Source of the DNA: Naegleria gruberi
Lineage: Eukaryota
DNA: 64,000 bases
NCBI GenBank assembly: GCA_000004985.1
Contig: GG738885.1
Reading direction: 5' to 3' (one strand)
The first letter of the stretch is position 1; each line of letters begins with the position of its first letter. The position numbers were made by a program, and so were the translations under genes. Of this stretch, positions 10,278 to 58,889 are shown piece after piece. A model generated the notes under the pieces. The model saw only the letters and a list, made by a program, of their open reading frames with translations, was not told where the DNA came from and made no database searches.

Positions 10278-10721
10278 ACCTTAATAAAAATGATCACTCT
10301 ATCACCCACAACCTGACATTCTCAAAACCAATTTATCGTACCAAATTATACTCCAACTTCCTCTTCAAAACCAACACTCTAACTATGTTTTTATTATTTC
10401 CTTCGAATATTTGGTTTTCATCCGTTCCCATAAATGGATCGGGTTGTTATCGCTTGCGATACATCTAAAAAAATACGCGCTTATTGTCCACCTCAGAAGA
10501 CAACACATGGTGATGGACGAATGTAAAGTCGAGGTGATTTTAATGTGTACGACAAGTGGTGAAGGAGACTTTTCGACCATGATTGGATCTTACGCATCAA
10601 AGAGTTGAAATTTCCCTCATCTCTCTTGTTGCTATGATCCTCAATATAAATAGAGGGAAGAAAATCTCCATCAATACAATACAACAATAAGAAAAAAACA
10701 AAACAACACAACAACTTGATA

Positions 10722-13700
10722 ATGACTCAAGGAACATCTGATCAACAAACATGTCCAGTATCAGGCATGAGCACTCAAAATAATGAAGCTCAATGTCCAT
10801 TTGCTTCTGCTGATTCTCGTCGTAATAGTAAAGGAAGCAATGGCAGTAATCAACCATGTAAAGAAGAACCAATTCCTCAACCAGAACCACACTTTCTCGT
10901 TGGTAATATCTTTACAGTCGATAAAAAGAATCCATTTCCAAGTTTTATTGAATTGGCCAAAAAGTTCGATGGTATTTTCAAGATGAATATATTAGGTAAA
11001 CAATTAGTAGTAGTTTACAGTCAAGAATTGGTCAATGAATTATGTGATGAGAGCAGATTTGAAAAGGCACTTCCTCCAGGATTAAAACACGTTAAAGAGT
11101 TTGGTGGGGATGGTTTATTCACTGCAGAGAATAATGAACCAAATTGGGCTATTGCTCACAGAATTTTAATGCCAGCCTTTGGTCCAAAATCAATTCAGGA
11201 TATGTATCCTCAAATGTATGATATTGCAGAACAATTGTGTACCAAATGGGAAAGATTGGGAGAGCACTCAGTTATTGACATTGTTGATAACATGACCAGA
11301 TTGACCTTAGATACAATTGCCTTGTGTGCATTCAACTATAGATTTAACAGTTTCTATCATAATGAAATGCATCCATTCGTACAGTCCATGTTCGAGGCAT
11401 TGCAAGAAGCCAGCTCTAGAACTAAGAGACCTTCCATTTTGAACAATGTCTTGGTCAAGACAAAGAAAAAGCATCAAAGAAATATTGAATATATGCATGC
11501 AGTTGCAGACGAGATTGTAAAGGACAGAAAGAAGAATCCAAGTGATGTTAACGATTTGCTTAATAGAATGTTACTTGGAAAGGATCCAGTCACCAATCAA
11601 GGATTAAGTGATGAAAATATTAGATATCAAATGGTCACGTTTTTGATAGCCGGGCACGAGACGACTAGTGGTCTTTTGAGTTTCACGCTTTATGAACTTC
11701 TCAAACATCCAGAAGTTTTAAAGAAAGCTCAAAAAGAAGTTGACACTGTGATTGGAAATGAAAATATTCAAATCAAACATATTCCACAACTTGTCTATTT
11801 GGATCAAATCCTCAAAGAAACTCTTCGTCTGTGGCCAACTGCTCCTGGATTTGGTCTTGGTTGTAAAACTGATCAAGTCATTGGTGGAAAGTATAGAATT
11901 CACCCTTCAGATTTTATTATTGTGAGTAATTCCAATTTGCACAGAGATAAGAAAGTTTGGGGTGAAGATTGTGAACAATTCAATCCTGATAGAATGAGCC
12001 CAGAAAACTTTTCCTCACTTCCAAGTAACAGTTGGAAACCTTTTGGTAATGGATCGAGAGGTTGCATTGGCCGTCCATTTGCTTGGCAAGAAGCAATTTT
12101 GGTATTGGCTATGGTTCTTCAAAGATTTGAACTGATTGAGAATGATCCAAATTATCACTTGTCCATTACCCAAGCTTTGACCATCAAGCCAAATGGATTA
12201 TTCCTCAAAGTTAAGCCAAGATCTAATTGGAAAGGATCTCAATTGGTGAGAACTAATGCTTCTAATACTAGTTCTGAAAATTCTCATACTGATGATCAAA
12301 ATTCCACATCTACCGAATCAAAGGGTCCACTTTTGGTCTTGTACGGTTCTAACAGTGGTACATGTGAAAGCTTTGCCTCAATGTTGCACCAAGATGCTAA
12401 ATCCAAAGGATTTGATTGTAAAGTTGGTAGATTGAACACATTTACTGGTAACATTCCATTGGATACTCCAATTCTCATTGTAACAGCTTCATATGAAGGT
12501 CAACCAACTGAAGATGCCAAACAATTCGTTGGATGGCTCGAACATGTTCCAGAAAATACTCTCAAAGGACTCAAATATGCAGTTTTCGGATGTGGACACA
12601 GTGATTGGGTTGACACCTATCAAAGAATTCCAACATTCATTGACAACAAATTGAGTGAAGCTGGTGGTGAGAGAATTGCCCAGAGAGGAATTGGTAATGC
12701 TGCCAAAGACTTATTCTGTGAATTTGATCAGTGGAGAAAGACATTGTGGAGTTCTTTCGATCCTCATACCTCTCACGAACTTCCTCCAGTTGAAACAACC
12801 ATCATTAAGGGACATAGAGAAACAATTCTCCATTTCCAAAGTTTGGAACCTGGAAAGGTAATTGAAAATTATGATTTGGTTCCTGAGGACTATTGTGATG
12901 ATCATGGAACTTGTAGATCCAAGAGACATATTGAAATTCAATTGCCAGCTGGAGCTCATTATGAATCAGGTGATTATTTATCAGTATTACCTGTCAACTC
13001 TATGAAAGTTGTTAATAAGGCACTTTCTCATTTCAAATTAACTCACGATGATCAAATTGTCTTGAAGAGAAGTGAAACAATTTCATCTTCATCCTATCCT
13101 GTCAATGAGCCAATCTCTGCAGTCAACTTGTTCATGAATTATTTCGAATTGAGTCAACCAGCAACCAAGAGACAATTAGAAATTCTCCTCGAACACACAA
13201 AGGAAGCATCCGATAAGCAAGTACTCCAACAATTAATAGAAAAGGACTCTAACATTCCTCCAATTCTTGATATCGTTCATGATTTGAAATCTTGTACAAT
13301 TCCACTCGGAAATTTCTTGGATATTTCAATTCCTATGCGTACAAGACAATACTCAATCTCATCCTCTCCATTGTGGAATAAGGACAAGTGTACCATTACT
13401 GTTGGTGTATTGAGAGCTCCAGCAACCCATGGAAAAGGATTCCACGAAGGGGTTGCCTCCAATTTCTTGGCAAGTTGTCTTCCAGATATGCAAGTTTCGG
13501 TTCAAATTAGAAACTCTTCCTTCAAATTACCTAATGACCCATCTGTTCCAATTATCATGATTGGAGCTGGTACTGGTATTGCTCCATTCAGAGGTTTCGT
13601 TCAGGAAAGAGCTTGTCTCATTAAGGAAGGTAAGACTCTTGGTAAGGCTCTCTTGTTCCAAGGATGCAGAAATCCAGAACAAGATTACTTGTACAAGAAG

Positions 13701-13994
13701 GAACTCGAAGAATGGAGTCAATTGGGAGCTGTTGAATTGAGACCAGTTTTCTCAAGAATGGGAAGTAACGTAAAATATGTTCAAGATAAGATTATGGAAT
13801 GCAAGGAAGAAGTTGCTAAACTCTTACTGGAAGAAGCTCAAATCTACATTTGTGGTGAAGGAAATCATATGGCACCTGCTGTTAAGAAAGTCTTGATGGA
13901 AATTTATCAACAAGTTACCAATTGTACAAAGGAAGAAGCTGAAAAGAGAATGAGCTCGATGGATAAGCGTTTTGCTGTTGATGTTTTTGCATAA
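10722..13994 (+). CDS. Self-sufficient cytochrome P450-NADPH-P450 reductase fusion (CYP102A1/P450BM3-like; fungal CYP505-type fatty-acid hydroxylase)
   Basis: The N-terminal heme domain is collinear with P450BM3 (ELCDESRFEKAL, FGGDGLFTAE, I-helix AGHETTSG, EXXR at ETLRLWP, heme loop FGNGSRGCIGRPFAWQE). It is followed by a flavodoxin-like FMN domain (LLVLYGSNSGTCESFA) and an FAD/NADPH domain (RQYSISSSP, GAGTGIAPFRGF). The first ATG is at 10722; the ORF-track start at 10716 is TTG. Confidence 0.9.
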   Translation: MTQGTSDQQTCPVSGMSTQNNEAQCPFASADSRRNSKGSNGSNQPCKEEPIPQPEPHFLVGNIFTVDKKNPFPSFIELAKKFDGIFKMNILGKQLVVVYSQELVNELCDESRFEKALPPGLKHVKEFGGDGLFTAENNEPNWAIAHRILMPAFGPKSIQDMYPQMYDIAEQLCTKWERLGEHSVIDIVDNMTRLTLDTIALCAFNYRFNSFYHNEMHPFVQSMFEALQEASSRTKRPSILNNVLVKTKKKHQRNIEYMHAVADEIVKDRKKNPSDVNDLLNRMLLGKDPVTNQGLSDENIRYQMVTFLIAGHETTSGLLSFTLYELLKHPEVLKKAQKEVDTVIGNENIQIKHIPQLVYLDQILKETLRLWPTAPGFGLGCKTDQVIGGKYRIHPSDFIIVSNSNLHRDKKVWGEDCEQFNPDRMSPENFSSLPSNSWKPFGNGSRGCIGRPFAWQEAILVLAMVLQRFELIENDPNYHLSITQALTIKPNGLFLKVKPRSNWKGSQLVRTNASNTSSENSHTDDQNSTSTESKGPLLVLYGSNSGTCESFASMLHQDAKSKGFDCKVGRLNTFTGNIPLDTPILIVTASYEGQPTEDAKQFVGWLEHVPENTLKGLKYAVFGCGHSDWVDTYQRIPTFIDNKLSEAGGERIAQRGIGNAAKDLFCEFDQWRKTLWSSFDPHTSHELPPVETTIIKGHRETILHFQSLEPGKVIENYDLVPEDYCDDHGTCRSKRHIEIQLPAGAHYESGDYLSVLPVNSMKVVNKALSHFKLTHDDQIVLKRSETISSSSYPVNEPISAVNLFMNYFELSQPATKRQLEILLEHTKEASDKQVLQQLIEKDSNIPPILDIVHDLKSCTIPLGNFLDISIPMRTRQYSISSSPLWNKDKCTITVGVLRAPATHGKGFHEGVASNFLASCLPDMQVSVQIRNSSFKLPNDPSVPIIMIGAGTGIAPFRGFVQERACLIKEGKTLGKALLFQGCRNPEQDYLYKKELEEWSQLGAVELRPVFSRMGSNVKYVQDKIMECKEEVAKLLLEEAQIYICGEGNHMAPAVKKVLMEIYQQVTNCTKEEAEKRMSSMDKRFAVDVFA

Positions 13995-14183: not shown

Positions 14184-15143
14184 TTACAAGGATGGCTTTT
14201 CTGACTTTTTGCATGTCTTTCTCTTGATACAAATCTTCTTCTTGATTGACTTGCAACACTTCTTCTTTCCACCAACCAATTTGAATTTCTTACAAATCTT
14301 CTTTCCCTTAGAACGTTTCAAACACTTCTTATAATACTTCTTCTTGAGACATCTTGGTGGAATGACAATTGATTTGGCACAATATTTCTTCTTTTGATAT
14401 TTGACACATTTAGAAAGAGTCTTCTTGTGCTTACAGAACTTGATAGTCTTATGCTTGGCACAGAAGAATTTCTTCTTAATGAGACAACATTTCTTGATGG
14501 ATTTTCTCTCCTTACAGTATTTAACCTTCTTATACTTGGCACATTTCTTTGCCCATGCAACAATCTTGCACTTTTTAACATATCTACATTTGGCAACCTT
14601 CTTCTTATAGGAATCAACAGTGTACTTATCGCAAATCTTCTTCTTTTCACACTTCTTGATTGGAACCTTCTTGAATTTCTTACAGACCTTCTTATATCCC
14701 TTCTTGACGCACTTGTTGACAATCTTGTGTTTGGCACAGAATTTCTTGTAACCCTTCTTCACACAAATCTTCTTAGTTCCATAAGAATCACAAACTTTCC
14801 AGTGCTTCTTCTTGGCACAACCAACAATCTTGTACGCATGCAAGACACATTTCTTTGTTGGCTTGCTATACTTGTCACATTTGGAATATTTCTTATGTTT
14901 GAGACATTTACCAGCACCGACAATGGCATATTGATCACAGACCTTCTTTTGACCAACGAGTTTGTGTTTCAAACACTTCTTAATCCACTTGTGCTTTAAA
15001 CATTTTCTCTTACTAATCTTTGGCTTGTGATACTTGTCAACTACGACTGGTCCAGGTTTGGTTTGATAGCTGTCAGTTGCTTGAACTGAAAGAATGGCAA
15101 GCAGGAGAAGAATTGCAATTGAAACAATTAGATTTGCTTTCAT
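14184..15143 (-). CDS. Secreted, extremely basic Lys/Cys-rich repeat protein (novel; function unknown)
   Basis: The N-terminal signal peptide is MKANLIVSIAILLLLAILSVQA. The mature part of about 295 aa is roughly one-third Lys with about 36 Cys, spaced every 7-12 residues in reiterated C-x-K-H-K / CxKKxYKKxC units. The same DNA yields long spurious ORFs in other frames (14394..14999 +, 14318..14737 -) because of the AAG/AAA-rich repeats. Confidence 0.6.
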   Translation of the reverse strand: MKANLIVSIAILLLLAILSVQATDSYQTKPGPVVVDKYHKPKISKRKCLKHKWIKKCLKHKLVGQKKVCDQYAIVGAGKCLKHKKYSKCDKYSKPTKKCVLHAYKIVGCAKKKHWKVCDSYGTKKICVKKGYKKFCAKHKIVNKCVKKGYKKVCKKFKKVPIKKCEKKKICDKYTVDSYKKKVAKCRYVKKCKIVAWAKKCAKYKKVKYCKERKSIKKCCLIKKKFFCAKHKTIKFCKHKKTLSKCVKYQKKKYCAKSIVIPPRCLKKKYYKKCLKRSKGKKICKKFKLVGGKKKCCKSIKKKICIKRKTCKKSEKPSL

Positions 15144-33550: not shown

Positions 33551-36070
33551 TTATGGTCTTTTTGTAAAAGTTGCAAAATCTCTTTCCAATAGACAGAATC
33601 GAATGGGAGAAAGTGAAAGTCCTCTCAATTTCTCAATATTTAAACCCATTGCCTCTGGGTTGAATTCATCAAATTTCAATAAACTATTCATATTTGTCAT
33701 TTCATGAATCATTTCGTCAGATAATTTTGAAACATGTCTTACATTACTCGAGTTGACCTTTTCAAACAAATTTTCCAGCAAGGTTGTTTTTAAATTAATT
33801 AAATATCCAAAAGGAACACAAATTGACACTGTAAAAAGCATCTTGACAATATCCTTTGCCGATAACTCATTAAAAAATCGAGAATCAAATCGATCATTAT
33901 TAATGGTTGCATTAATTATAAATTGAACGTGTGAAATGTCGAAATGAACTGTCATCTTATCGAGTAAATTCAAGAAGTGAATCGTCATTGGACAGAATCT
34001 ATTCAGTAATGGCTTGAATATGTATAAATCTCCTGATTTAGTTTGAATTCGTGTAGATCTTGGTTCTATCAATACATTCGATTTTGAAAGCATTGACTGA
34101 TTATCAACCTTGTTCACATTTGAATTATTATAGAAAATTGTAAAACTCTCTCCACATGCAACCGAGTTAAAATCCAACTCTCCAACTTTCTCCTTTGGAA
34201 ATTTAACTCTTTTCAGATAATTCTGATACTCGTTATCTTGTATTCCATTAATGAATCCCAATCTTCCATCTTCATTCTTTCCACATGCAAAGAATTGATC
34301 CAGATAATTTACAAACACTGAGTGGTGATAACCACAAGTCAGGTTTTTAAAACTATTCTTTGAACTTTCGCCATCTCCAAAAGTAATAAACTTGAAAGTT
34401 GGATTTGTCACATGAGTCTTGAATGAGGATAAGGAACCAACAGAGTAAATATCAGTCCTAGATCTAGGACTGTCATTATGTGAATCTGCAGAGAATGGTC
34501 GAGGAGAACACAAATCCTGAAATAAATTTGAAGGAGAATAATTTGGATTCGAATGAAAAATGTAAATTTTCTTGGAAGAGTTTGAAATAGCCAATGTAAA
34601 ATAAATTCCACTACTCAATTGGTCCACTTTCTCATTAAGAGGAACTTTCTTAAAGAATGGAATGATTGAATTCTTTCTATACATGGTTGACCTCTTTTCT
34701 TCAGGCATTGTTGATACATCCACAACTGATGCAGCATCATTCATATCACCACCAATTCCACAACTGAAAATTTCACCATCCATTGATAAAATTGCAGCTG
34801 TGTCTATATTAAAAGAAATTGATTTGATTGGAATGTTGAAGAGTGGAATTTGTGTAAAGACTGAAATTTTAGTCTTGTGAAGAAAAAGTCCCAATTGAGC
34901 ATTTGCATTCGATCCACATACGAAAACTTCTCTTTTTGAAGTGATTATTGCAGAATTATTGAACTGACAATGAATATCATCAATATGTTGATCCTTATTC
35001 AGGTAAAAATTGACTTTTGAAAAGACAAATCGATCACTAAAATCACCCAATCCCAATTGACCATCATTATTCCTTCCCGTTGAATAAACATCCCCATTCT
35101 GAGTCACAATCATTGTGTGCTTATCTCCACATGAAACCAACTTGACATTGTACAAATTTTTCAAATTCAAATTTCTAGAAATTGTCCTCGAAGGTCTCCT
35201 CATTGGTAACATGGGTTTTCCAATACTCTCAACGAGTGGTAAGAGGTTAGTGAGATGGACCTCTCTCAGGAAATTCAATTCCAAATCTTCGTGTGGTTCC
35301 AATTCGGATTGTATATGAGAAAGTGTGGAAGGAGAAGACGAAACTCTTGGTGAGTGAATAGGTGTAATGTCTGGAACATCAGAGTCACTTCCAATCGAAT
35401 CATTACTCGAATTTAAATCGGAATTTTGACCCCTTCTATGAGTTATTGTTTTAGGAATTCCCAATTGACCGAAATCATTCCATCCAGAACAGAATAATCT
35501 TCCACCATGTGTTAAAATCATGTAATGTTTGGATCCACATGAAATTTTCTTAATTTTCTCTCCAAATGGAATTGTTTTATAATAATTCAATCGATCCCTT
35601 AATGAAATTGTCGGCAATAACGTTGCTGACTTTCCCATATAATTATCCGAATGTTGTTTTGATTTTTGCTGTTGTTGAATAAATTCCAATCTCTTTTGCT
35701 GTTCTCGAGATGTGTTGTAAATTGAGCCACACAACAGGAGTCCGTCAAATTTTCCTCTTGACGAATCTTCATAACATGTTTGATTTGCAGCTTCACTATT
35801 AGACGATTCGAAACTTTGATTTAGAGTTTGGTTTAGGTTAGTTTCCTTGTTGTTGATTTCAACACGGAGTAGTGGTGGTGTATTATCGGCATCTAGAGAA
35901 GATGCTTGACTTGTTGCTGATGAATAGGAAGAAGCATCTTCTTCATCTCCTTTCCCACAATCATTATTCGAATGAACGTTTAGAAAATTATTCGAATTCA
36001 TTAAATACCCATCATCACTATATTCCAAAACACTACTGATCGAAAGAGAAGGAACTCTTTTCTTATCCAT
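33551..36070 (-). CDS. RCC1-repeat (regulator of chromosome condensation-like) protein with BTB-like C-terminal region
   Basis: An 839-aa ORF with a Ser-rich N-terminus. RCC1 blade motifs recur (CGSKHYMILTHGGRLFCSGWNDFGQLGI; CGDKHTMIVTQNGDVYSTGRNNDGQLGLGD; CGSNANAQLGL). The C-terminus is BTB-like (TVHFDISHVQFIINATINNDRFDSRFF). Confidence 0.6.
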   Translation of the reverse strand: MDKKRVPSLSISSVLEYSDDGYLMNSNNFLNVHSNNDCGKGDEEDASSYSSATSQASSLDADNTPPLLRVEINNKETNLNQTLNQSFESSNSEAANQTCYEDSSRGKFDGLLLCGSIYNTSREQQKRLEFIQQQQKSKQHSDNYMGKSATLLPTISLRDRLNYYKTIPFGEKIKKISCGSKHYMILTHGGRLFCSGWNDFGQLGIPKTITHRRGQNSDLNSSNDSIGSDSDVPDITPIHSPRVSSSPSTLSHIQSELEPHEDLELNFLREVHLTNLLPLVESIGKPMLPMRRPSRTISRNLNLKNLYNVKLVSCGDKHTMIVTQNGDVYSTGRNNDGQLGLGDFSDRFVFSKVNFYLNKDQHIDDIHCQFNNSAIITSKREVFVCGSNANAQLGLFLHKTKISVFTQIPLFNIPIKSISFNIDTAAILSMDGEIFSCGIGGDMNDAASVVDVSTMPEEKRSTMYRKNSIIPFFKKVPLNEKVDQLSSGIYFTLAISNSSKKIYIFHSNPNYSPSNLFQDLCSPRPFSADSHNDSPRSRTDIYSVGSLSSFKTHVTNPTFKFITFGDGESSKNSFKNLTCGYHHSVFVNYLDQFFACGKNEDGRLGFINGIQDNEYQNYLKRVKFPKEKVGELDFNSVACGESFTIFYNNSNVNKVDNQSMLSKSNVLIEPRSTRIQTKSGDLYIFKPLLNRFCPMTIHFLNLLDKMTVHFDISHVQFIINATINNDRFDSRFFNELSAKDIVKMLFTVSICVPFGYLINLKTTLLENLFEKVNSSNVRHVSKLSDEMIHEMTNMNSLLKFDEFNPEAMGLNIEKLRGLSLSPIRFCLLERDFATFTKRP

Positions 36071-46371: not shown

Positions 46372-48624
46372 ATGACCTTTCTAACACCAACTGTTGATAA
46401 CAGTACCACATCTACTCGAAAGAATAGTACACTTCTGACCCCTCCTCCAACTGGAACCAAATCACCTTCTTCCACAACACATTCAGCCACCAATCCAACA
46501 AACCAAGACGAAACTCGATCAGCAGTCTCTAAAGCAGGAGGAAATTCTTCTATTGAAAATGGCAACATTAAGAAGGAATTATACATGAAGAGAAAGAGAA
46601 TCACATTACTGAGCAGTATCTTGGGTTTAATATTTGCAGTATTAGCTGTTGCTGTTCTGTCACCAATCATTGTCATTGTCATTCACTCATTGGAAAAACA
46701 GAGAAAAGATGGATATGTAGAGAGAGTGAAACAGATTGCAATTACTGCAGAGCTGCTAATCAGAAAACAAGTTGAAGTTTCGTTTGGTTCTCTACAAATT
46801 ATGAGTCAAGTCGCCCAAGAATGGAATTATTCGATTAATTTGGAAAGATTTAACAATTTTGCTTCAAGGTTGACCAAAGATTTTCCAGAATTGAATACTT
46901 TTGAGTATGCTCTGACGGATGAGTTTGTTTTGGAGTATATTTATCCATTGGCAGGATTGGAATTTATGATTGGACATCACATGGGTCTTAATACGTATGT
47001 AATTTTTACAATTTTTGTAATTTTTTAATTTTTTAAATATTTTGTAATTTATTTAATAATATTTAATAATATTTAATTTGAAATTGTAAAATATTGAATG
47101 AAATTGTATTGAAATAGACCTGCTCATACAACAATTATTAAGGAAGCAGTTGCTACGAAAAAGACAAAAATCTTTGGACCAATCAATATGATCAATTTGG
47201 ATCCTAATTCTGTGGCTGTAATTGCTCAGAATCCAATTTACTATCCGAATGGAACTTTCTTTGGTTTGAGTGTGGAACTGTTCGATTTTATGAAACTATT
47301 CGAAACTATAGATTTACACACAGTTCTATCAGGATTCCAATACCAACTATTCGAATATGCTCAAAATCAAATCTTTATGCAAAATCTCAATGGAACCAAA
47401 TCAGGAACCATTGGAACTATAGGAAATCCCAATGTGAAATATTTAACAGATTCAATCGAACGAAACATGACAGTCATGAACAGTAATTGGAAAATTATCC
47501 TTCGTCCAATTGATGGCTGGGACACTGACAGCTTACTCTGGCTTGAAGTCTGCATTGGCATTGCAGTTGCCTTAGTAGTTTTCATTCTCGTCATTTTAGG
47601 AGTCAACCAATTGGTTCAAGATTATTTCAGAAAGAAGGAATATCAATATATTCAAGATAGTTTGGAAATGAAAGTTAAGGAGAGAACGAAAGATTTGGCT
47701 AGCTCACATTCTCAATTATTGTTGCTTTTGGATAGAATTTCATTTGAGGAGCAGAGAACGAAAAAGATTATGAATTCTCTGGAAGATTCGGTTATCACGA
47801 TTGATTCGTCAGCTATGGGAAAGATTATACATTCGAATAATGCATTTTTTAAGAATTTTGGATATACTGATTCGGATTTGATTAGAAATTTGTCAATTTC
47901 AACTCTTTTACCAAAGTTAAATTTGAGTACGATTGTGACAGAGTTGAAGAATCAAGCCGATTTGAAAGTAGCCGAAACTACTGCCAATACAAAGACAGGA
48001 GTTTCGCTCAATGTGAAAGTTTCCATCTCCATGAGTCAAATTTACAATCAACCTTCCAATAATCAACAAAATTCGATTGGTCAACCAGGAATTCCAACCA
48101 TTACCATCACAGACGAAAAGGAAAGAGAAATGGCAACCATCAGAGAATGCAAACTCCAAACTGTCTACGTTATCCTAATCCACATCCTCGACACAATCAT
48201 CCATCCAACAGGTTTCAACGAACACTATCAACTCACCAACCAAATCACAAATGAATTTCTGGAATTTTTCACAGATATTGAAAATCGAAAGAAATTTAAA
48301 GAATTTTGCTCGACTGAAAGAAACGATGAAAATATTTGCTTTTTGGAAGATGTGGAATTTTACAAAAGTTTGGGGAATATTCAAGAAAGAGTTACAATGC
48401 AAGAGGAAATGTATAACAAGTATCTTAAGGCTAATTCTCCAAAACAGTTGAATATTTCAAAGAAACAATTAGAAACTCATTCGTTCAAGATTAGTCGAGG
48501 TTTGGGAGAATTTGAACTGTTTGACGAGTTGGAGAGGACTGTTATCTTGACAGTTTCAATGGATAGCTTTAAGAGATGGCAAGAGAAGGAGAGAAGAAAT
48601 GAGGATCATCTCAATTATCTGTAA
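46372..48624 (+). CDS. Two-TM sensor protein: extracytoplasmic CHASE-like domain - TM - coiled coil - PAS - C-terminal RGS domain
   Basis: Two exons, 46372..46994 and 47118..48624. The intron 46995..47117 runs GTATGT..AATAG and is phase 2. The Ser/Thr-rich N-terminus leads into TM1 (ITLLSSILGLIFAVLAVAVLSPIIVIVI). An extracytoplasmic domain of about 270 aa follows (...IMSQVAQEWNYS...PAHTTIIKEAVATKKTKIFGPINMINLDPNSVAVIAQNPIYY...), then TM2 (LLWLEVCIGIAVALVVFILVILGV). A PAS-like block (LEDSVITIDSSAMGKIIHSNNAFFKNFGYTDSDLI) and an RGS-like C-terminus (NDENICFLEDVEFYKSL...FELFDELERTVILTVSMDSFKRW) complete it. Confidence 0.55.
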
Positions 48625-52449: not shown

Positions 52450-53340
52450 TGTATAATACTACTTAGTACTAAGTGATGTTAATTGTTTCATTTCACTTAT
52501 GAATTTGAATCCTTCTACACTAATTTGATTTCCACCAATATCAAGTGATTTTAATTGTCTCATTTCACTTATAAATTTGGCTCCTTCATCACCAATTTGA
52601 TTTCCACCAATAACAAGTGATTTTAATCGTTTCATTTCACTAATAAATTGACTCCTTCATCACCAATTCGATTGTTATAAATAGTCGAGTGATGTTAATT
52701 GTTTCATTTCACTTATTAATATGGCTCCTTCATCACCAACTCGATTTCTACCAATACCAAGTGATGTTAATCGTTTCATTTCGCTTATTGATTTGACTCC
52801 TTCATCACCAATTCTATTGTAACTAATATCAAGTGATGTTAATTGTTTCATTTCACTTATAAATATGGCTCCTTCATCACCAATTCGATTTTCAGAAATA
52901 TTAAGTGATGTTAATTGTTTCATTTCAATAATAAATTTGACTCCTTCATCACCAATTCGATTGTTATAAATATAAGTGATGTTAATTGTTTCATTTCGCT
53001 TATTGACTTGGCTCCTTCATCACCAATTCGATTTCCACCAATACCAAGTGATGTTAATCGTTTCATTTCACTTATTGATTTGACTCCTTCATCACCAATT
53101 CGATTGTTACTAATATCAAGTGATATTAACTGTTTCATTTCACTTATAAATTTGGCTCCTTCATCACCAATTCGATTTTACAAATATCAAGTGATGTTAA
53201 TTGTTTCATTTCAGTTATGAATGTGGGTTTTTCTATAGAGTCAAACAACCTTTTAGTAAATATAACATTAACAATACTATTCATAAATTGACTTTTCGTG
53301 AATAATTCATTCTTTTCACCAATTCTTTTTAAATATATCA
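52450..53340 (-). pseudogene. Frame-decayed partial duplicate of the downstream F-box/LRR gene's RNI-type LRR array
   Basis: About ten 84-bp LRR-coding units (MKQLTSLDISNNRIGDEGVKSISE consensus) are read on the minus strand. They are broken by at least four single-base indels relative to the intact units. At about 53180, attgttactaatatc reads attttacaaatatc. At about 52975, atagtaagtg reads atataagtg. At about 52685, atagtaagtg reads atagtcgagtg. At about 52640, aaatttgactcc reads aaattgactcc. The 5' boundary at about 53221..53300 duplicates the segment at 53941..54020. Confidence 0.5.
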
Positions 53341-54000
53341 AGTGATGTTAATCGTGTCATTTCACTTATGAACTTGACTCCTTCATCACCAATTTGATTT
53401 CCGCCAATATCAAGTGATTTTAATTGTTTCATTTCACATATAAATTTGGCTTCTTTATCACCAATTCGATTGTAACATATATCAAGTGATGTTAATTGTT
53501 TCAGTTCACTTATAAATATGGCTCCTTCGTCACCAATTCGATTTTCAGAAATATTAAGTGATGTTAATTGTTTCATTTCACTTATTGATTTGGCTCCTTC
53601 ATCACCAATTCGATTGTTATAAATAGTAAGTGATGTTAATTGTTTCATTTCACATATAAATTTGACTCCTTCATCACCAGTTTGATTGTTATTAATATCA
53701 AGTGATGTTAATTGTTTCATTTCGCTTATTGACTTGGCTCCTTCATCACCAATTTGATTTCCACCAATACCAAGTGATGTTAATCGTTTCATTTCAATTA
53801 TTGATTTGACTCCTTCATCACCAATTCCATTGTTATAAATACCAAGTGATATTAACTGTTTCATTTCACTTATAAATTTGACTCCTTCATCACCAATTCG
53901 ATTGTTACTAATATCAAGTGATGTTAATTGTTTCATTTCAGTTATGAATGTGGGTTTTTCTATAGAGTCAAACAACCTTTTAGAAAATTTAACATTAACA
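52450..54000. repeat. Tandem array of ~84-bp (28-codon) LRR-coding units; ~720-bp segmental tandem duplication
   Basis: Period-84 repetition is visible directly in the sequence (gtgatgttaattgtttcatttcacttataaat...ctccttcatcaccaattcgatt...). The block 53161..53300 recurs at 53881..54020. Confidence 0.7.
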
Positions 54001-54332
54001 ATACTATTCATAAATTGACTTTTCGTGAATAATTCAATTCTTTTCTCTGTAAATTTCTTTTTAAATTTAATAAAAAGTTTTGAACGTTCCTTGATCACAT
54101 TAAAGAATTGTTTTGAAATCAAGGAACAATTATTCAAAATAAACCACGAATCATCAATCATGGAAATTATTTCAAAACAAATATCATCGGAAAATATTTC
54201 TTCTCGTTGGAGCGACACTAGTTTTTTCTTTTTTGCCTTCTCCTCCATGTTATTATTATTATGATTGATCACGAGTAGCAGTTCCTCCGAAGTTTTTAGC
54301 TTTTCGAAATCTTGTCTGTTTCGTTTGCTCAT
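53316..54332 (-). CDS. F-box-like / RNI-type leucine-rich-repeat protein (intact copy)
   Basis: A 338-aa ORF. It has an F-box-like segment (DDICFEIISMIDDSWFILNNCSLISKQFFNVIK). It is followed by eight near-perfect 28-aa repeats (xEMKQLTSLDISNNRIGDEGVKFISE). The C-terminus, ...LDIFKKNW, runs into the duplication junction, so the true 3' end is uncertain. Confidence 0.55.
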   Translation of the reverse strand: MSKRNRQDFEKLKTSEELLLVINHNNNNMEEKAKKKKLVSLQREEIFSDDICFEIISMIDDSWFILNNCSLISKQFFNVIKERSKLFIKFKKKFTEKRIELFTKSQFMNSIVNVKFSKRLFDSIEKPTFITEMKQLTSLDISNNRIGDEGVKFISEMKQLISLGIYNNGIGDEGVKSIIEMKRLTSLGIGGNQIGDEGAKSISEMKQLTSLDINNNQTGDEGVKFICEMKQLTSLTIYNNRIGDEGAKSISEMKQLTSLNISENRIGDEGAIFISELKQLTSLDICYNRIGDKEAKFICEMKQLKSLDIGGNQIGDEGVKFISEMTRLTSLDIFKKNW

Positions 54333-54556: not shown

Positions 54557-55513
54557 ATGATGATGACGATGATCAACAAAATAGATTTTGTTTCATACAC
54601 TTATACTGATAAATTTGTCAGATTAGAGATTGATGGTAAATCTTCCTTTGCTTTTAGTAATATTATCGGAGGAGATAAGAGTATATTCTTTGTTTGTGCA
54701 TCTTCTAATAGACTGGTCGAGATCAATGCTAAAGAATTTATTAGGCATAAAACACACAATACAGTAAAAACACCTATTACTTTGATTGATCACGATAAAG
54801 ATAATAGAATAGAAATGACAAAGATTGAATACCCAAATTTGATGGAGGACTCTATTGTTTATAATATTCAATATGTTATGGGAAAGGATTATGTGTATTT
54901 AGTGGACAAAAAAGATGGGAATGTTGGATCTTTTTCTCTCACTACAGGTCAATTATTAGTTAACAATTATTCAGATCATAGAGGAATCAGAAAGTTTATC
55001 GCTGGACCTCTTTCTTCTTGTCATGTCGTGCTGACCTATGACGGAACTATTTTTGAGAATGGAAAGGAGGTTGTTTTTTTTTCTACTGATCCACAACCGA
55101 ATATTTTGAGAGCTGCATGTTGTGGAAGAGGATCAATTCTGGCTTCTTCTCATGATCTTTATGCAAGAGGAGGCGATAATGTATTCTTTGTGTTTTCAGA
55201 AAAGTTTGGAGACTACAATCAAAATGTTTCATCAACACAGTTTGTGCATATTGCTAAATTTGAACACGAAATTAGAGATATCCAATGTGGATACTTTCAT
55301 ACTGTGGTTCTTTTGCAGAATAATGAATTATTTGCATGTGGCTACAATTGTTTGAATCAAGCCACTTGGGATAATTCCAGTGGTGAGATTAAACAATTTA
55401 CCAAAATTCAATACTCATTCGGTTATATTGAGAGATTTGGATGTTCCTCAAGAGGTACTTGGGTTGTTAGTGGTGAGTATTTTGTTCTTCTTTTGCTAAT
55501 CTTTTTAAGGTGA
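54557..55513 (+). CDS. RCC1-like repeat protein (divergent)
   Basis: A 318-aa ORF with weak RCC1-blade motifs (CGRGSILASSHDLYARGG; CGYFHTVVLLQNNELFACGYN). A GTGAGT..TTTAAG interval of only 37 nt (55473..55509) would join it in frame to ORF 55524..55751. That is shorter than any other intron here, so the 3' structure is unresolved. Confidence 0.35.
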   Translation: MMMTMINKIDFVSYTYTDKFVRLEIDGKSSFAFSNIIGGDKSIFFVCASSNRLVEINAKEFIRHKTHNTVKTPITLIDHDKDNRIEMTKIEYPNLMEDSIVYNIQYVMGKDYVYLVDKKDGNVGSFSLTTGQLLVNNYSDHRGIRKFIAGPLSSCHVVLTYDGTIFENGKEVVFFSTDPQPNILRAACCGRGSILASSHDLYARGGDNVFFVFSEKFGDYNQNVSSTQFVHIAKFEHEIRDIQCGYFHTVVLLQNNELFACGYNCLNQATWDNSSGEIKQFTKIQYSFGYIERFGCSSRGTWVVSGEYFVLLLLIFLR

Positions 55514-55912
55514 TGAGGTTACAATGGTAGGAGAGGTTGTTGAACATTTTACAACTTTAGTTTCAAATACAGTTGTTCCAAAAATCATAAAGTTTCATCT
55601 GGAGGGCTTTGCTTGTGATACATTGACGAATTGTGGATGGCACTACGTAATGTACAAGCAAAACTCAAAGAAGAGTAACTATTTCAAAGAAAGACTTCAT
55701 ACCATGGTTGACTCGGAACGAATTTCTGACCTTGATTTCATTTACCAATAATTTATGTAAAATCATATTTTTAACTTAATGCCTGTGTAACCATTAATAT
55801 GGTCATTATCCTTCCTTTTGTTACATCCACTAACTCTACCATCCTAAACTGGAATCCATGTCACAGTTAAATCTGATTTGACTTGCAATACCACCGCTCT
55901 TCAACAAAAAAA

Positions 55913-57202
55913 ATGCCAAAACAACAAACAACCAAGAAAACCACAACCAATATCACTGAATCAAAGCAAGCCAAGACAAATATCTTGTTAGCACAGAATG
56001 AATTCTCTTCTGCCCTTTTCTCCCAAGTTGTCGATGAGAGTGCAGTAGATTCCAATGTAATTATTTCTCCATTTTCTATTTACCTGGCCATGATTAATTG
56101 CATGATGGCAACTGGAGGAAATACATTGAAGGAAATGATAAACGGTTTATTCCTTAAGGATAGTTTCGACAGTTGTAAGATGAACGATTTCAATGAACAG
56201 TTCCAACAATGGAAGGAAAGTGAATTGAAGCAGTACTCTACAATGATCAAGAAGATTGTTCAAAATCAGGATGTTTTATCAATTGCAAACAGAATTTATG
56301 TTGAAAAGTCTGTCGATATTAAGAGCGAATTTATTCAAGAATTAGAAGATCAATTTGATTCTGAAACTCAGTTGGCTAATTTCAAGAATGGTACCAAATC
56401 AGAAGTTTCAAAAATTAACAATTGGGTTGCTTCCATCACAAAGAATTCCATTAGAAATTTGATTACTGAACTTGACAAGGAAACACTCATGGTTCTTGTA
56501 AATGCCATCTACTTTAATGGTAAATGGAAGCATCAATTTCTTAAGAATAGAACTGTGGAAACTGCATTCAGAACTGTCAAAGATCCAGAGGGTGACTCAA
56601 CCAATTGCCAAATGATGAGTTTGGAAGATTGTAAAAGTAATTTTTATTTTGAAGAAATAGAAGATTGTCACATTTTAAAATTACCATACACAGACGAAGA
56701 TTATTGTATGCTCATTATCAAACCAGATGATTCCATTGATGTAGACGAGGAAAATGAAATTAGCTTCAACAAATGGATCAATTCAAAATTAACTGATATT
56801 ACCCAAATCTATCCTAAAGAAATGGTAAAGATGAGAAAGATTAGAATTCCTAAATTCAAATTTGAAAAGCAATTCGCCAACATTATTTCCAAAATGTCAG
56901 GCAACCCATTCAATATCAAGTCCTTATTCAATTCTAACACAGCTGATTTTTCCAACATGCTCTCTAATCCAAACACTGATGGAATCTATGTAGATCAAAT
57001 AATTCACAAGGCATGCATTGAAGTGGACGAATGTGGAACTGTTGCAAGTGCAGCAACTGCCATCTCAGCCAGAAAAAAGAGTAAATCTAGCTCTTCTGAA
57101 AAGGTATACGAATTTATTGCAGATAGACCTTTTGCATTCGTATTGAACCACATTCCTACCCAAAGTGTTCTCTTTGTTGGTAAAATTAATCAAATAAATT
57201 AA
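55913..57202 (+). CDS. Serpin (serine protease inhibitor), no signal peptide (intracellular-type)
   Basis: It has the serpin breach/shutter motifs LMVLVNAIYFNGKWKHQF, the hinge plus reactive-centre loop EVDECGTVASAATAISARKKSKSSSS, and the C-terminal signature FIADRPFAFVL. The first ATG is at 55913; the track start at 55883 is TTG. The N-terminus is basic and hydrophilic, not a signal peptide. Confidence 0.8.
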   Translation: MPKQQTTKKTTTNITESKQAKTNILLAQNEFSSALFSQVVDESAVDSNVIISPFSIYLAMINCMMATGGNTLKEMINGLFLKDSFDSCKMNDFNEQFQQWKESELKQYSTMIKKIVQNQDVLSIANRIYVEKSVDIKSEFIQELEDQFDSETQLANFKNGTKSEVSKINNWVASITKNSIRNLITELDKETLMVLVNAIYFNGKWKHQFLKNRTVETAFRTVKDPEGDSTNCQMMSLEDCKSNFYFEEIEDCHILKLPYTDEDYCMLIIKPDDSIDVDEENEISFNKWINSKLTDITQIYPKEMVKMRKIRIPKFKFEKQFANIISKMSGNPFNIKSLFNSNTADFSNMLSNPNTDGIYVDQIIHKACIEVDECGTVASAATAISARKKSKSSSSEKVYEFIADRPFAFVLNHIPTQSVLFVGKINQIN

Positions 57203-57240: not shown

Positions 57241-58889
57241 TTATAAAATGATAACTTCTTGTGGTGGAGGCGTTAAAGGCTTTGGATTATTTACAATTAT
57301 TGAAATATCTGTGTAAAAATCTGTAACTAATCTACGCTTCATTCTAGCAAATGTCCAAGCTAGCCTAGTATTCTCTTTCTTAGTGAGATAAATGCTACGA
57401 GATTTAGAGCTAGTAAATAATTGATAAGAAAAGGAAGGGTTTTGTAGAAAAGAGTTGGGCAAGAGAATTCTATGAGGTACAGAAATGTCTCCCTCAATCT
57501 TTTCACAATAACTTGAACCAGTGATGTAAAAGTGTCCCTTTTTGGTTCCAAATACAGAACATGCTCTTCCTGCATGAATTGAAGTAATGAGCTCGTTAAC
57601 AGTGTTAATTCTTGTAGGCATATTCCTATCGGAATAATCTCCTAATCCTAATTGGCCATGCTTGTTTCTTCCTGAACAATAAAGCTGATTATTCCTAGTA
57701 AGGAAAAGAGTATGATTCCATCCACAAGCAATCATTGAAATGGATTGGTTGGAAAAGTGCTTCTTATCGATCAGAGTAATATCTGACCTCGATTTAAAGT
57801 CTTGTAACCCAAGTTGACCATAAGAATTCCTTCCACATGCAAAAACTTGTCCTAATTTTGTCAGAAATACAGAATGCAACTCGCCACAAGATGCAAATAT
57901 AACATAATCATTACTCTCCACCAATTCATCAAAGAATGTCAGTCTACTTGGTATTTTTATATCAACATCTCCATACATTTCTCCACAGAAATAGACCTTG
58001 TTGGTTCTTGTTATCATGATGGTATGATACGATCCACAAGCAAGTAGTTTGACCTTCTCATCAATTCTCGTCTTGGAAAGTGTGTTTACTCTACAATAGT
58101 CCTCTCCCAAATAATTTTCATCATTGACACATCCAATCTGTCCATAAATATTATATCCTAATTAGCCAGTTGCATGAATTTTGTAATAATATTAGACCAA
58201 AACCAATGTTCCACCAACAACTTACCCACTCCATACACCTGTCCATCTTTTGTCAATATCATACTATTTCTTTTACCACAAGCAATGTCTTTAATTTCTA
58301 AATCTTCCAAACAAAATTTCAAAATGTGTTTGTATACAGTAGAGTGTACAGTGCTACTAATATTCAATTGAGAATCAGCATTCTTTCCAATTGCAAATAT
58401 CCTATTCTTACTTGTTAAAATTAGAGTATGCCAAGATCCAGATTCAATCTTTTCAATATTTTCATCAATATCCAATACAGTAGACTTGATACTTTTCACT
58501 TGATGATCAATATTATTCATGCACAAGACTCCACCTTTACAGAATGCATTCATCCTATTGTTTTTGTGAGGGATCTTTACAAAGTGATCAATTTGCTCTG
58601 TTTCTTCTTGTTGTTGCAACTGGGAATCAACAATTAAAACATGTTCTTCAACAAATTCATCACCATACACAAATAATTCATTGGTTCTTAAAGGCTTTCT
58701 CTGTAAAATCTTGATCAACTTGTCATCATCAAGCACAGTTTCGGAACAATTAATTTCCTCATTAAATAATAGCAAGGAACCACTACTAGATGAATGTTGA
58801 TGATTACTACTACTAGTAGTATTATGATTATTATTAATTAATAGAAAGGGAACAACAGTCGTATCATCATCATAAATAATTTGCGTCAT
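57241..58889 (-). CDS. RCC1-repeat protein
   Basis: Two exons on the minus strand, 58226..58889 and 57241..58157. The intron 58158..58225 runs GTAAGT..AATTAG and is phase 1. Splicing joins ...KDGQVYGVG|GYNIYGQIGCVNDENYLGEDYC.... Repeated blades include CGSYHTIMITRTNKVYFCGE, CGELHSVFLTKLGQVFACGRNSYGQLGL, CGWNHTLFLTRNNQLYCSGRNKHGQLGLGD and GSWHTLILTSKNRIFAIGKNADSQL. Confidence 0.65.

Follow-up and report, generated by a model that had tools for sequence, protein, structure and literature searches.

The window that we analysed is a stretch of 64,000 nucleotides from the free-living amoeboflagellate Naegleria gruberi NEG-M (Discoba, phylum Heterolobosea according to a taxonomy look-up), and all positions given here refer to it. 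On its plus strand, a single-exon coding sequence at 55913..57202 runs intron-less and uninterrupted from an ATG at 55913 to a stop codon ending at 57202 and encodes a serpin of 429 amino acids. The same 429 residues, at 100% identity and 100% coverage, make up the N. gruberi "predicted protein" P0001, and seven further open reading frames (ORFs) of the window exactly match proteins of N. gruberi NEG-M that lie on the same contig of 362,555 bp. A first-pass annotation of this DNA had suspected an early-diverging fungus as the host, but a fungal host is ruled out by these exact matches and by the heterolobosean taxonomy. An additional upstream exon of the serpin gene is unlikely because in-frame stop codons lie just 5' of its ATG and the stop codon of the neighboring gene is only 161 nt away.

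Both neighbors of the serpin gene encode RCC1 repeats. The upstream one is a divergent RCC1-like gene on the plus strand (54557..55751) in which a single RCC1_2 repeat passes the threshold (33.9 bits at a cutoff of 22). Its ORF at 54557..55513 probably continues to a stop codon at 55751 via a putative, frame-preserving intron of 37 nt (GTGAGT...AAG, 55473-55509) that we propose from the sequence. The downstream gene is convergent, lies on the minus strand at 57241..58889, and encodes a robust RCC1 protein (RCC1, E 2.7e-27; RCC1_2, E 1.3e-27). A short intron presumably connects its two ORFs (58889-58158 and 58110-57241), and only 38 nt separate its stop codon from that of the serpin gene. The two flanking RCC1 genes described in the first-pass annotation are therefore real, while the "fungus-like genome" invoked in the same statement is not found in the sequence. 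A functional gene cluster of the serpin and these two genes would fit their direct adjacency on both sides, but we regard it as highly improbable. A third RCC1 gene is encoded about 20 kb away at 33551..36070, and with three such genes among the 31 window ORFs of at least 200 amino acids, their adjacency to the serpin is expected from the abundance of the family alone. Furthermore, a serpin locus of N. fowleri has unrelated neighbors without any RCC1 gene, the two flanking genes resemble each other only at the level of repeats (26% over 105 amino acids), and we know of no biology that links RCC1 propellers and serpins. Because of this repeat-level similarity, we also rejected an origin of the flanking genes by tandem duplication. 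Their position next to the serpin gene thus looks incidental, and they do not appear to be part of its function.

The protein itself is a bona fide serpin, as had been proposed. It falls into the serpin superfamily (Pfam PF00079/MEROPS I4) and matches the Pfam Serpin profile with an E-value of 1.3e-81 and 275.2 bits (cutoff, 27 bits) over profile positions 2-369 of 370, this domain is its only one in Pfam, and a sequence search of the PDB returned 196 matching serpin chains (best E 1.6e-42). Three serpin motif blocks reported before are present exactly where they had been placed, i.e., NAIYFNGKWK of strand s3A and the breach with its invariant alignment columns (aa 197-206; 56501..56530), the hinge block EVDECGTVASAATA (aa 370-383; 57020-57061), and FIADRPFAFVL of the s1C/s4B region that follows the reactive-centre loop (RCL; aa 401-411; 57113..57145), all on the plus strand. 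In an alignment with human alpha-1-antitrypsin (reference sequence checked 394/394 against PDB 2qug), residues N197, F201, and W205 share columns with N186, F190, and W194, which are conserved. More broadly, the core, shutter, and breach residues of alpha-1-antitrypsin are kept in invariant columns (S53, S56, N186, W194, F198, Y244, P255, P289, F312, H334, and E342), and S52, P53, and S55 are nearly invariant in an alignment of 40 sequences.

Ahead of helix A, the first 22 amino acids (55913..55978, plus strand) form a Lys/Thr-rich, hydrophilic extension for which disorder is predicted. This extension does not represent a signal peptide, in agreement with the first-pass annotation, and neither a signal peptide nor any N-terminal hydrophobic segment was found in the first 30 residues (Kyte-Doolittle means over 12 residues, -1.8 to -0.2). 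The helix C-D region (aa about 80-115; 56150..56257, plus strand) is extended by an insertion in alignments with alpha-1-antitrypsin and leukocyte elastase inhibitor and contains a clade-specific motif, W-[KR]-x(3,4)-[LM]-[KV]-x-[YF], which reads FQQWKESELKQY in the window protein. An AF2 model (pLDDT 87.6, pTM 0.86) begins helix A at residue 23 and places helices of the C-D region at 82-86 and 93-115. Low confidence is confined to the N-terminus and the RCL (pLDDT <50 at residues 1-3, 8-18, and 381-395), which for residues 381-395 is consistent with an exposed loop. As predicted by this model, the protein has the three beta-sheets, 8-9 helices, and exposed RCL of the serpin fold, and the best among the Foldseek matches listed for the PDB were all serpins (E about 1e-30, TM normalised to target 0.73-0.88). 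The model says nothing about the native metastable state because residues 375-381 are drawn as a beta-strand and several of the top Foldseek matches are latent or cleaved forms.

The hinge fits that of inhibitory serpins, and the RCL offers a plausible P1. The hinge from P17 to P9 (E373-C-G-T-V-A-S-A-A381; 57029..57055, plus strand) aligns with inhibitory serpins, as anticipated by the first-pass annotation, and follows their consensus with Glu at P17, Gly at P15, Thr at P14, A-S-A-A at P12-P9, and no proline. Its P14 residue is uncharged and every sequence rule for loop insertion is satisfied, though P16 Cys and P13 Val are uncommon. In the RCL stretch AISARKKSKSSSSEKVYEF (aa 383-401, plus strand), the predicted reactive centre comprises R387-K388-K389 as P3-P2-P1 and S390 as P1' (57071..57082). 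K389 is the 17th residue counted from P17, as expected for P1, and it aligns with the P1 residue M358 of alpha-1-antitrypsin in a register that also pairs E373 with E342 (P17), G375 with G344, T376 with T345, and S390 with S359. The same lysine is found opposite the P1 Cys (C344) of leukocyte elastase inhibitor, and these alignments bear out the earlier suggestion of a basic residue at the probable P1. However, this register is not fixed since the P' side exceeds that of leukocyte elastase inhibitor by four residues and several lysines and serines occur in the loop. Cleavage could alternatively fall at K388 or K391, and phmmer places RKKS opposite RRKR of Drosophila Spn42Da, so that S390 faces the P1 Arg of the latter.

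Within its host, the window gene is an ordinary, uncharacterised member of a multigene serpin clade found across Naegleria. N. gruberi encodes at least four serpins, others are present in N. fowleri and N. lovaniensis, and a rough NJ tree (distance-based and with limited sampling) joins the Naegleria serpins and their environmental relatives in one clade with a bootstrap value of 75, apart from the sampled bacterial and metazoan serpins. Reactive centres in this clade are mostly basic and occasionally acidic, with K or R at the canonical P1 in 8 of 14 members, e.g., CKRK/RR in a 66%-identical paralogue (P0002), GTRK/SK in N. gruberi D2VPM2, and IVGR/TT in N. fowleri (the slash marks the P1-P1' bond). 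The subclade of the window serpin has basic N-terminal extensions, among them an RGG-rich one of 100 amino acids in the environmental relative P0003, and there is one secreted branch in the pathogen N. fowleri. The relatives from N. fowleri and N. lovaniensis already carry the name "Serpin domain-containing protein" in public databases. The literature that we searched contains no paper on Naegleria serpins and no biochemical, expression, or localisation data for them, only incidental mentions (host Serpin A3M, Acanthamoeba serpins, and antistasin-like inhibitors), and Naegleria is absent from the main text of the serpin phylogeny by Spence et al. 2021 (PMC8233489).

The first-pass annotation had considered the gene a notable occurrence or a candidate for horizontal acquisition. 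Instead, the protein was already public, and Naegleria has at least four serpins including this one, so that it is an ordinary family member and neither rare nor horizontally acquired. That serpins might prove common in the host lineage had been named as a circumstance that would speak against the original interpretation, and this is in spirit what we found given how numerous the serpins of Naegleria are. Serpins are patchily distributed among protists and those of Bacteroidota appear among the matches at 26-28% identity, as one might expect after a recent gain from a bacterial, animal, or giant-virus source, or on a contaminant contig. Nevertheless, such an origin is extremely unlikely. The paralogues of N. 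gruberi fall into one clade with the N. fowleri and N. lovaniensis genes, homologues found beyond the Naegleria/environmental clade reach at most about 36% identity, and the gene is embedded among exact N. gruberi genes. Its GC content (0.336), GC3 (0.342), and codon usage are within the range of 25 neighboring ORFs, and a scan of IMG/VR with the serpin protein found no close viral relative. Clade membership, neighbor-like composition, and the viral scan thus give no hint of a recent horizontal gain, and we rejected this origin and contamination on the grounds of composition, clade structure, and the lack of any close relative outside the clade.

The window protein is a genuine serpin of the inhibitory type, with inhibition itself predicted from its sequence. 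Among solved structures, it comes closest to inhibitory serpins that are intracellular or directed at furin, i.e., leukocyte elastase inhibitor (4ga7), Spn42Da (4p0f), and PAI-2. In our interpretation, which we hold with good confidence, it is an intracellular, clade-B-like (ovalbumin-type) serpin from a chromosomal gene of N. gruberi that would act as a suicide-substrate inhibitor of a Lys/Arg-specific protease. This protease would attack the exposed RCL at or beside the K389-S390 bond behind Arg-Lys-Lys at P3-P1 and would then be trapped by the standard serpin suicide-substrate mechanism, presumably in the cytosol or nucleus. Candidate targets may be trypsin-like or subtilisin/kexin-like serine proteases, either endogenous or derived from prey or pathogens, and possibly, through cross-class inhibition, Arg/Lys-specific metacaspases or papain-like cysteine proteases.

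A variant of this explanation differs in the target alone and supposes that the physiological one is a cysteine protease (an Arg/Lys-specific metacaspase or a papain-like/cathepsin enzyme) rather than a trypsin-like serine protease. Cathepsin-B-like cysteine proteases are plentiful in Naegleria, and few S1 proteases of the chymotrypsin fold are known from most protists, both of which count in its favor, as do the lack of a signal peptide and the basic residues at the predicted P1. A precedent is Arabidopsis AtSerpin1, which has Arg at P1 and is an inhibitor both of metacaspase-9, in vitro, and of RD21, a papain-like protease, in vivo (PMC3534287), and papain-like cysteine proteases are inhibited by Spn42Da isoforms (PMC4006314). 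Cathepsin-B-like cysteine proteases of Naegleria are mentioned in PMC6831594, and PMC5982838, which bears on the metacaspase question, has the N. gruberi proteome among those covered. However, an RCL sequence alone cannot tell serine from cysteine protease targets, and we regard a cysteine protease as the less probable though plausible target.

More distant from the proposed suicide-substrate inhibitor is a non-inhibitory serpin, e.g., a chaperone, storage, or chromatin-associated protein that would have kept the fold but would not trap proteases. The unusual P16 and P13 residues and the long, Ser-rich P' side could be read in this way, and the basic or RGG-rich N-termini of the subclade could hint at an association with nucleic acids as in MENT, a nuclear serpin that the window protein also matched in the PDB search. 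Yet a hinge that fully conforms to the rules of loop insertion and the conserved shutter and breach residues make a loss of inhibition improbable. MENT itself is an inhibitor, and residence in the nucleus would thus not mean that inhibition had been lost.

Beyond the single gene, we tentatively suggest a lineage-specific radiation of intracellular serpins in Naegleria and heterolobosean relatives, though we think it rather doubtful. Its polybasic subclade (RKK/S, KRK/RR) with basic or RGG-rich N-termini would then serve as a cytosolic or nuclear brake on endogenous Arg/Lys-specific proteases such as metacaspases or kexin-like convertases. These serpins might act in amoeba-flagellate-cyst differentiation, in cell death, or against the proteases of ingested bacteria.

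The significance of the window gene beyond its correct annotation is small because its sequence was released together with the N. gruberi NEG-M genome and already carried the tag PF00079. The useful results are negative in that the idea of a fungal serpin or of horizontal transfer is removed and the RCC1 neighborhood appears to be incidental. A distinct clade of Naegleria serpins with at least four genes and a secreted branch in N. fowleri could nonetheless interest work on proteolysis or virulence.

Several known serpins invite comparison with the window protein. Celpin is a secreted serpin with dockerin domains that is associated with the cellulosome of the anaerobic fungus Piromyces. It shares with the window protein a serpin domain in a microbial eukaryote, but the latter has a hydrophilic N-terminus without signal peptide, no dockerin domain by Pfam, and a heterolobosean rather than fungal host, so it does not belong to this type. 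The best matches among solved structures are vertebrate clade B serpins (SERPINB1/leukocyte elastase inhibitor 4ga7, E 1.6e-42; PAI-2, E 6e-38). Like the window protein, they lack a cleavable signal peptide, are only slightly extended at either terminus, and have the canonical hinge of inhibitory serpins at a distance of 17 residues from P1; an enlarged helix C-D region is shared with PAI-2. However, identity is only about 25-30%, P1 is Lys instead of Cys or Phe in the clade B comparators, and the longer P' side and the protein's own clade-specific W-K...K-x-Y motif in the C-D region set it apart. The NJ tree places it with the Naegleria/environmental clade and not with LEI-like and oyster B-like sequences.

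Drosophila Spn42Da-A/B (Spn4A; furin/PC2-directed; 4p0f/4p0o) is the second-best PDB sequence match (E 7e-41), and the polybasic RCLs align. Spn42Da-A, whose P4-P1 residues are RRKR, uses the classical mechanism to inhibit furin and PC2, and Spn42Da isoforms without signal peptide act in the cytosol (PMC4006314). In the window protein, P4-P1 read ARKK in the canonical and RKKS in the +1 register given by pairing with Spn42Da, without Arg at both P4 and P1 in either, and it thus lacks the furin consensus R-X-K/R-R, to which its paralogue P0002 comes far nearer. It also has neither an alternative RCL exon nor an HDEL motif, unlike Spn42Da. Finally, AtSerpin1 (3le2, E 4.1e-33), an "LR" plant serpin, resembles the window protein as an intracellular serpin (predicted here for the latter) with basic P1 from a non-animal eukaryote, but it belongs to plant clade P and has Leu-Arg instead of Lys-Lys at P2-P1. 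If the suggested radiation were true, the polybasic Naegleria serpins would be the equivalent, in a protist, of MENT or AtSerpin1.

The serpin is encoded on the plus strand by a single uninterrupted open reading frame (ORF) of 429 codons, from the first ATG at 55913 to the end of the stop codon at 57202; the mechanical ORF opens with a TTG at 55883, ahead of this ATG. Because in-frame stop codons immediately 5' of the ATG close the frame and the stop codon of the upstream gene is only 161 nt away, the sequence makes a missing 5' exon unlikely. The three serpin motif blocks quoted in the first-pass annotation, i.e., NAIYFNGKWK (aa 197-206, nt 56501-56530), EVDECGTVASAATA (aa 370-383, nt 57020-57061), and FIADRPFAFVL (aa 401-411, nt 57113-57145; all plus strand), each occur in the translation exactly where they had been placed. 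Its call of a bona fide serpin is borne out by a near full-length match to the Pfam Serpin profile PF00079 (profile positions 2-369 of 370, E 1.3e-81), with a score of 275 bits where the curated cutoff is 27 bits. The protein also matches 196 distinct serpin chains in the PDB, with human leukocyte elastase inhibitor/SERPINB1 at the top (4ga7, E 1.6e-42) and Drosophila Spn42Da (4p0f, E 7e-41) and PAI-2 among the further best matches. An AlphaFold2 model built from an input alignment of 40 sequences is confident (pLDDT 87.6, pTM 0.86) except for residues 1-18 and the reactive-centre loop (residues 381-395), and its best Foldseek matches listed from the PDB are all serpins (E about 1e-30). By all sequence and fold criteria tested, the window protein belongs to the serpin superfamily.

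We aligned the window serpin and its relatives with human alpha-1-antitrypsin, using a reference sequence that is 394/394 identical to PDB 2qug. In this alignment, E373, G375, T376, K389, and S390 correspond to antitrypsin E342 (P17), G344 (P15), T345 (P14), M358 (P1), and S359 (P1'), respectively. A plain 17-residue count yields the same register with K389 as P1, in agreement with the basic P1 proposed from the first reading, and the phmmer alignment to leukocyte elastase inhibitor gives it too, with K389 paired with the P1 Cys of that serpin. The hinge E-C-G-T-V-A-S-A-A agrees with the inhibitory consensus as had been claimed, and shutter, breach, and core residues are kept (S53, S56, N186, W194, F198, Y244, P255, P289, F312, and H334 in antitrypsin numbering). 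Compared with leukocyte elastase inhibitor, the window serpin has four additional residues on the P' side (S-K-S-S-S-S-E-K-V-Y-E), and phmmer places R387-K388-K389-S390 opposite R-R-K-R of Spn42Da. The experimentally supported P1 of Spn42Da is the last Arg of this motif (PMC4006314) and thus lies one residue farther from the hinge than the canonical P1 of the window serpin. With these two caveats, the canonical rule predicts K389-S390 as the scissile bond, and K388 or K391 are alternative positions.

The first-pass annotation had taken the genome for fungus-like, with serpins rare in fungi, and had raised horizontal acquisition as a candidate; the host is not a fungus, and neither rarity nor horizontal acquisition appears to apply. 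The window serpin and a 429-aa Naegleria gruberi "predicted protein" are the same sequence (100% identity, 100% coverage); the latter is encoded on a 362,555-bp contig and already carries a PF00079 tag in the database. Seven other ORFs across the window, including a RhoGEF, an enoyl-CoA hydratase, an AlkB-like dioxygenase, and an NF-YB-like protein, are exact N. gruberi NEG-M proteins (EFC41451-EFC41463) of the same contig, i.e., of an organism belonging to phylum Heterolobosea of the Discoba. N. gruberi has at least four serpins, including a paralogue with 66% identity to the window serpin (P0002) and the more distant D2VPM2/NAEGRDRAFT_70913 and D2VFT7/NAEGRDRAFT_49183, and others are found in N. 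fowleri (FDP41_004767) and N. lovaniensis (C9374_004032) besides several metagenomic serpins of 34-49% identity. A HMMER search of 1.84 billion representatives returned 32,800 serpins; among the best-scoring matches put to names, only Naegleria or environmental sequences exceeded about 36% identity.

In a neighbour-joining tree (29 sequences, 368 trimmed columns, 100 bootstraps), the six named Naegleria serpins and seven environmental relatives form one clade with a bootstrap support of 75 (71 once an eighth environmental sequence, P0176, is included), while serpins of Bacteroidota, Firmicutes, Verrucomicrobia, insects, molluscs, and vertebrates fall outside; the window serpin and P0002 pair at 100. 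Such a rough distance tree does not have the resolution to place the clade's deep origin. The composition of the gene (GC 0.336, GC3 0.342, codon-usage distance 0.91) is within the range of 25 neighbouring ORFs (0.29-0.38, 0.22-0.47, and 0.48-1.41, respectively), and no close viral relative turned up when the viral contigs of IMG/VR were scanned. A recent transfer or a contaminant is thus argued against by the multi-species clade, the typical composition, and the viral scan, and all of these results taken together point to a serpin family that diversified within the Naegleria lineage.

Within this clade, Lys or Arg occupies P1 of the canonical register in 8 of 14 members. P4-P1 read C-K-R-K (then R-R) in P0002, G-T-R-K (then S-K) in D2VPM2, and I-V-G-R (then T-T) in the N. 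fowleri serpin P0005 (locus L001, 8001..9455), and among environmental sequences M-K-K-R (then S-K) in P0124, M-R-T-K (then S-K) in P0006, M-K-T-R (then S-I) in P0176, and I-R-G-R (then G-G) in P0189. The reactive centre of N. gruberi D2VFT7 (P0152) is acidic (A-E-E-D, then N), as is that of environmental P0185 (E-E-D-G, then C), and these two therefore differ in predicted protease specificity, which is possibly Asp/Glu-directed. Common to the clade is an enlarged helix C-D region bearing the motif W-[KR]-x(3,4)-[LM]-[KV]-x-[YF], which is missing from antitrypsin and leukocyte elastase inhibitor. Only P0005 and environmental P0149, which make up the N. fowleri branch, have an N-terminal hydrophobic segment resembling a signal peptide or anchor. 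A serpin of this branch may be one of the secreted "protease inhibitors" mentioned for the secretome of N. fowleri (PMC6831594). The other members, including the window serpin, lack such a segment, consistent with the earlier remark that a signal peptide is absent. The closest non-gruberi relative (P0003, 49% identical; L003, 811..2361, ENA metagenome ERZ929261) carries an N-terminal extension of roughly 100 aa rich in RGG/RGGN repeats, a repeat type that usually occurs in RNA-binding or nucleolar proteins, and the window serpin and P0002 have shorter, Lys-rich extensions. Extensions of either kind may hint at a nuclear location.

RCC1-repeat genes do lie on both sides of the serpin as first described. 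The convergent downstream gene (57241..58889, minus strand) has a clear RCC1 match and consists of two ORFs that a short intron presumably connects; 38 nt separate the stop codons of this gene and the serpin. The upstream gene (from 54557, plus strand) encodes an RCC1-like protein of divergent sequence, has one RCC1_2 repeat above threshold, and probably runs on via a putative 37-nt intron (GTGAGT...AAG), whose splicing would preserve the reading frame, to a stop at 55751. Some 20 kb away from the serpin there is a third RCC1-repeat gene (33551..36070, minus strand, 839 aa), so the family is locally abundant, and three such genes within one 64-kb window suggest that it is strongly expanded in the N. 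gruberi genome. This abundance, the merely repeat-level similarity of the two flanking genes (26% over 105 aa), and the unrelated neighbours of the N. fowleri serpin argue against a functional link, of which we found no sign in the window neighbourhood, the flank comparison, or the N. fowleri locus; the flanking itself is real but looks incidental.

The remaining window, with about 33% GC and RGS, Kelch, P450-reductase fusion, ornithine decarboxylase, EamA, and UNC-93/MFS genes, looks like an ordinary compact eukaryotic chromosome. Its 1092-aa ORF at 10716..13994 (plus strand) combines a cytochrome P450 domain (E 6e-88) in one chain with flavodoxin, FAD-binding, and NAD-binding reductase domains, i.e., a self-sufficient P450BM3/CYP102/CYP505-type architecture in a heterolobosean. 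A 319-aa ORF at 14184..15143 (minus strand) has no Pfam match and a GC3 of 0.47 compared to 0.22-0.36 in almost all others, and is overlapped on the opposite strand by a 201-aa ORF (14394..14999, plus strand); one of the two may be coding. The 478-aa RGS-domain ORF at 47188..48624 (plus strand) clusters with the longer annotated N. gruberi protein EFC41463 (709 aa) and therefore probably has further upstream exons, perhaps including ORF 46372..47028. At 53316..54332 (minus strand), an RNI-type leucine-rich-repeat protein with near-identical 24-residue repeats (…NNRIGDEGVKFISEMKQLTSL…) shows the lowest GC (0.29), lowest GC3 (0.215), and most deviant codon usage among the ORFs compared; its exact translation is absent from the protein collection, which means that the public gene model has to be a different one.

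Given the structural prerequisites seen in its sequence and model, the window serpin is most likely an intracellular suicide-substrate inhibitor, for which we infer inhibition, target, and cellular location. A protease cutting after Lys or Arg would attack the exposed loop, which would then insert into sheet A and leave the acyl-enzyme trapped. Trypsin-like enzymes, the targets originally predicted, are just one possibility among several: candidates would include trypsin-like or subtilisin/kexin-like serine proteases, with Spn42Da-A, which inhibits furin and PC2, as a precedent (PMC4006314), and across classes Arg/Lys-specific metacaspases or papain-like cysteine proteases, given that AtSerpin1 (P1 Arg) inhibits metacaspase-9 in vitro and RD21 in vivo (PMC3534287).

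Overall, the first-pass annotation stands as regards serpin identity, the inhibitory hinge, a basic P1, and the missing signal peptide; it does not stand as regards a fungal host, the rarity of serpins, horizontal transfer, or a meaning of the RCC1 flanks. Sequence and Pfam assignment are already public and the searched literature contained no publication characterising any Naegleria serpin, so the protein is known but unstudied, an ordinary member of a known family that is multi-copy in the N. gruberi genome. It does not belong to the fungal celpin type, and it lacks the consensus of the furin-directed class (P4-P1 A-R-K-K canonically, R-K-K-S in the +1 register), to which its paralogue P0002 comes much nearer. 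In its proposed mode of working, it resembles plant AtSerpin1 and the intracellular clade-B serpins of vertebrates, though phylogenetically it is not part of clade B.
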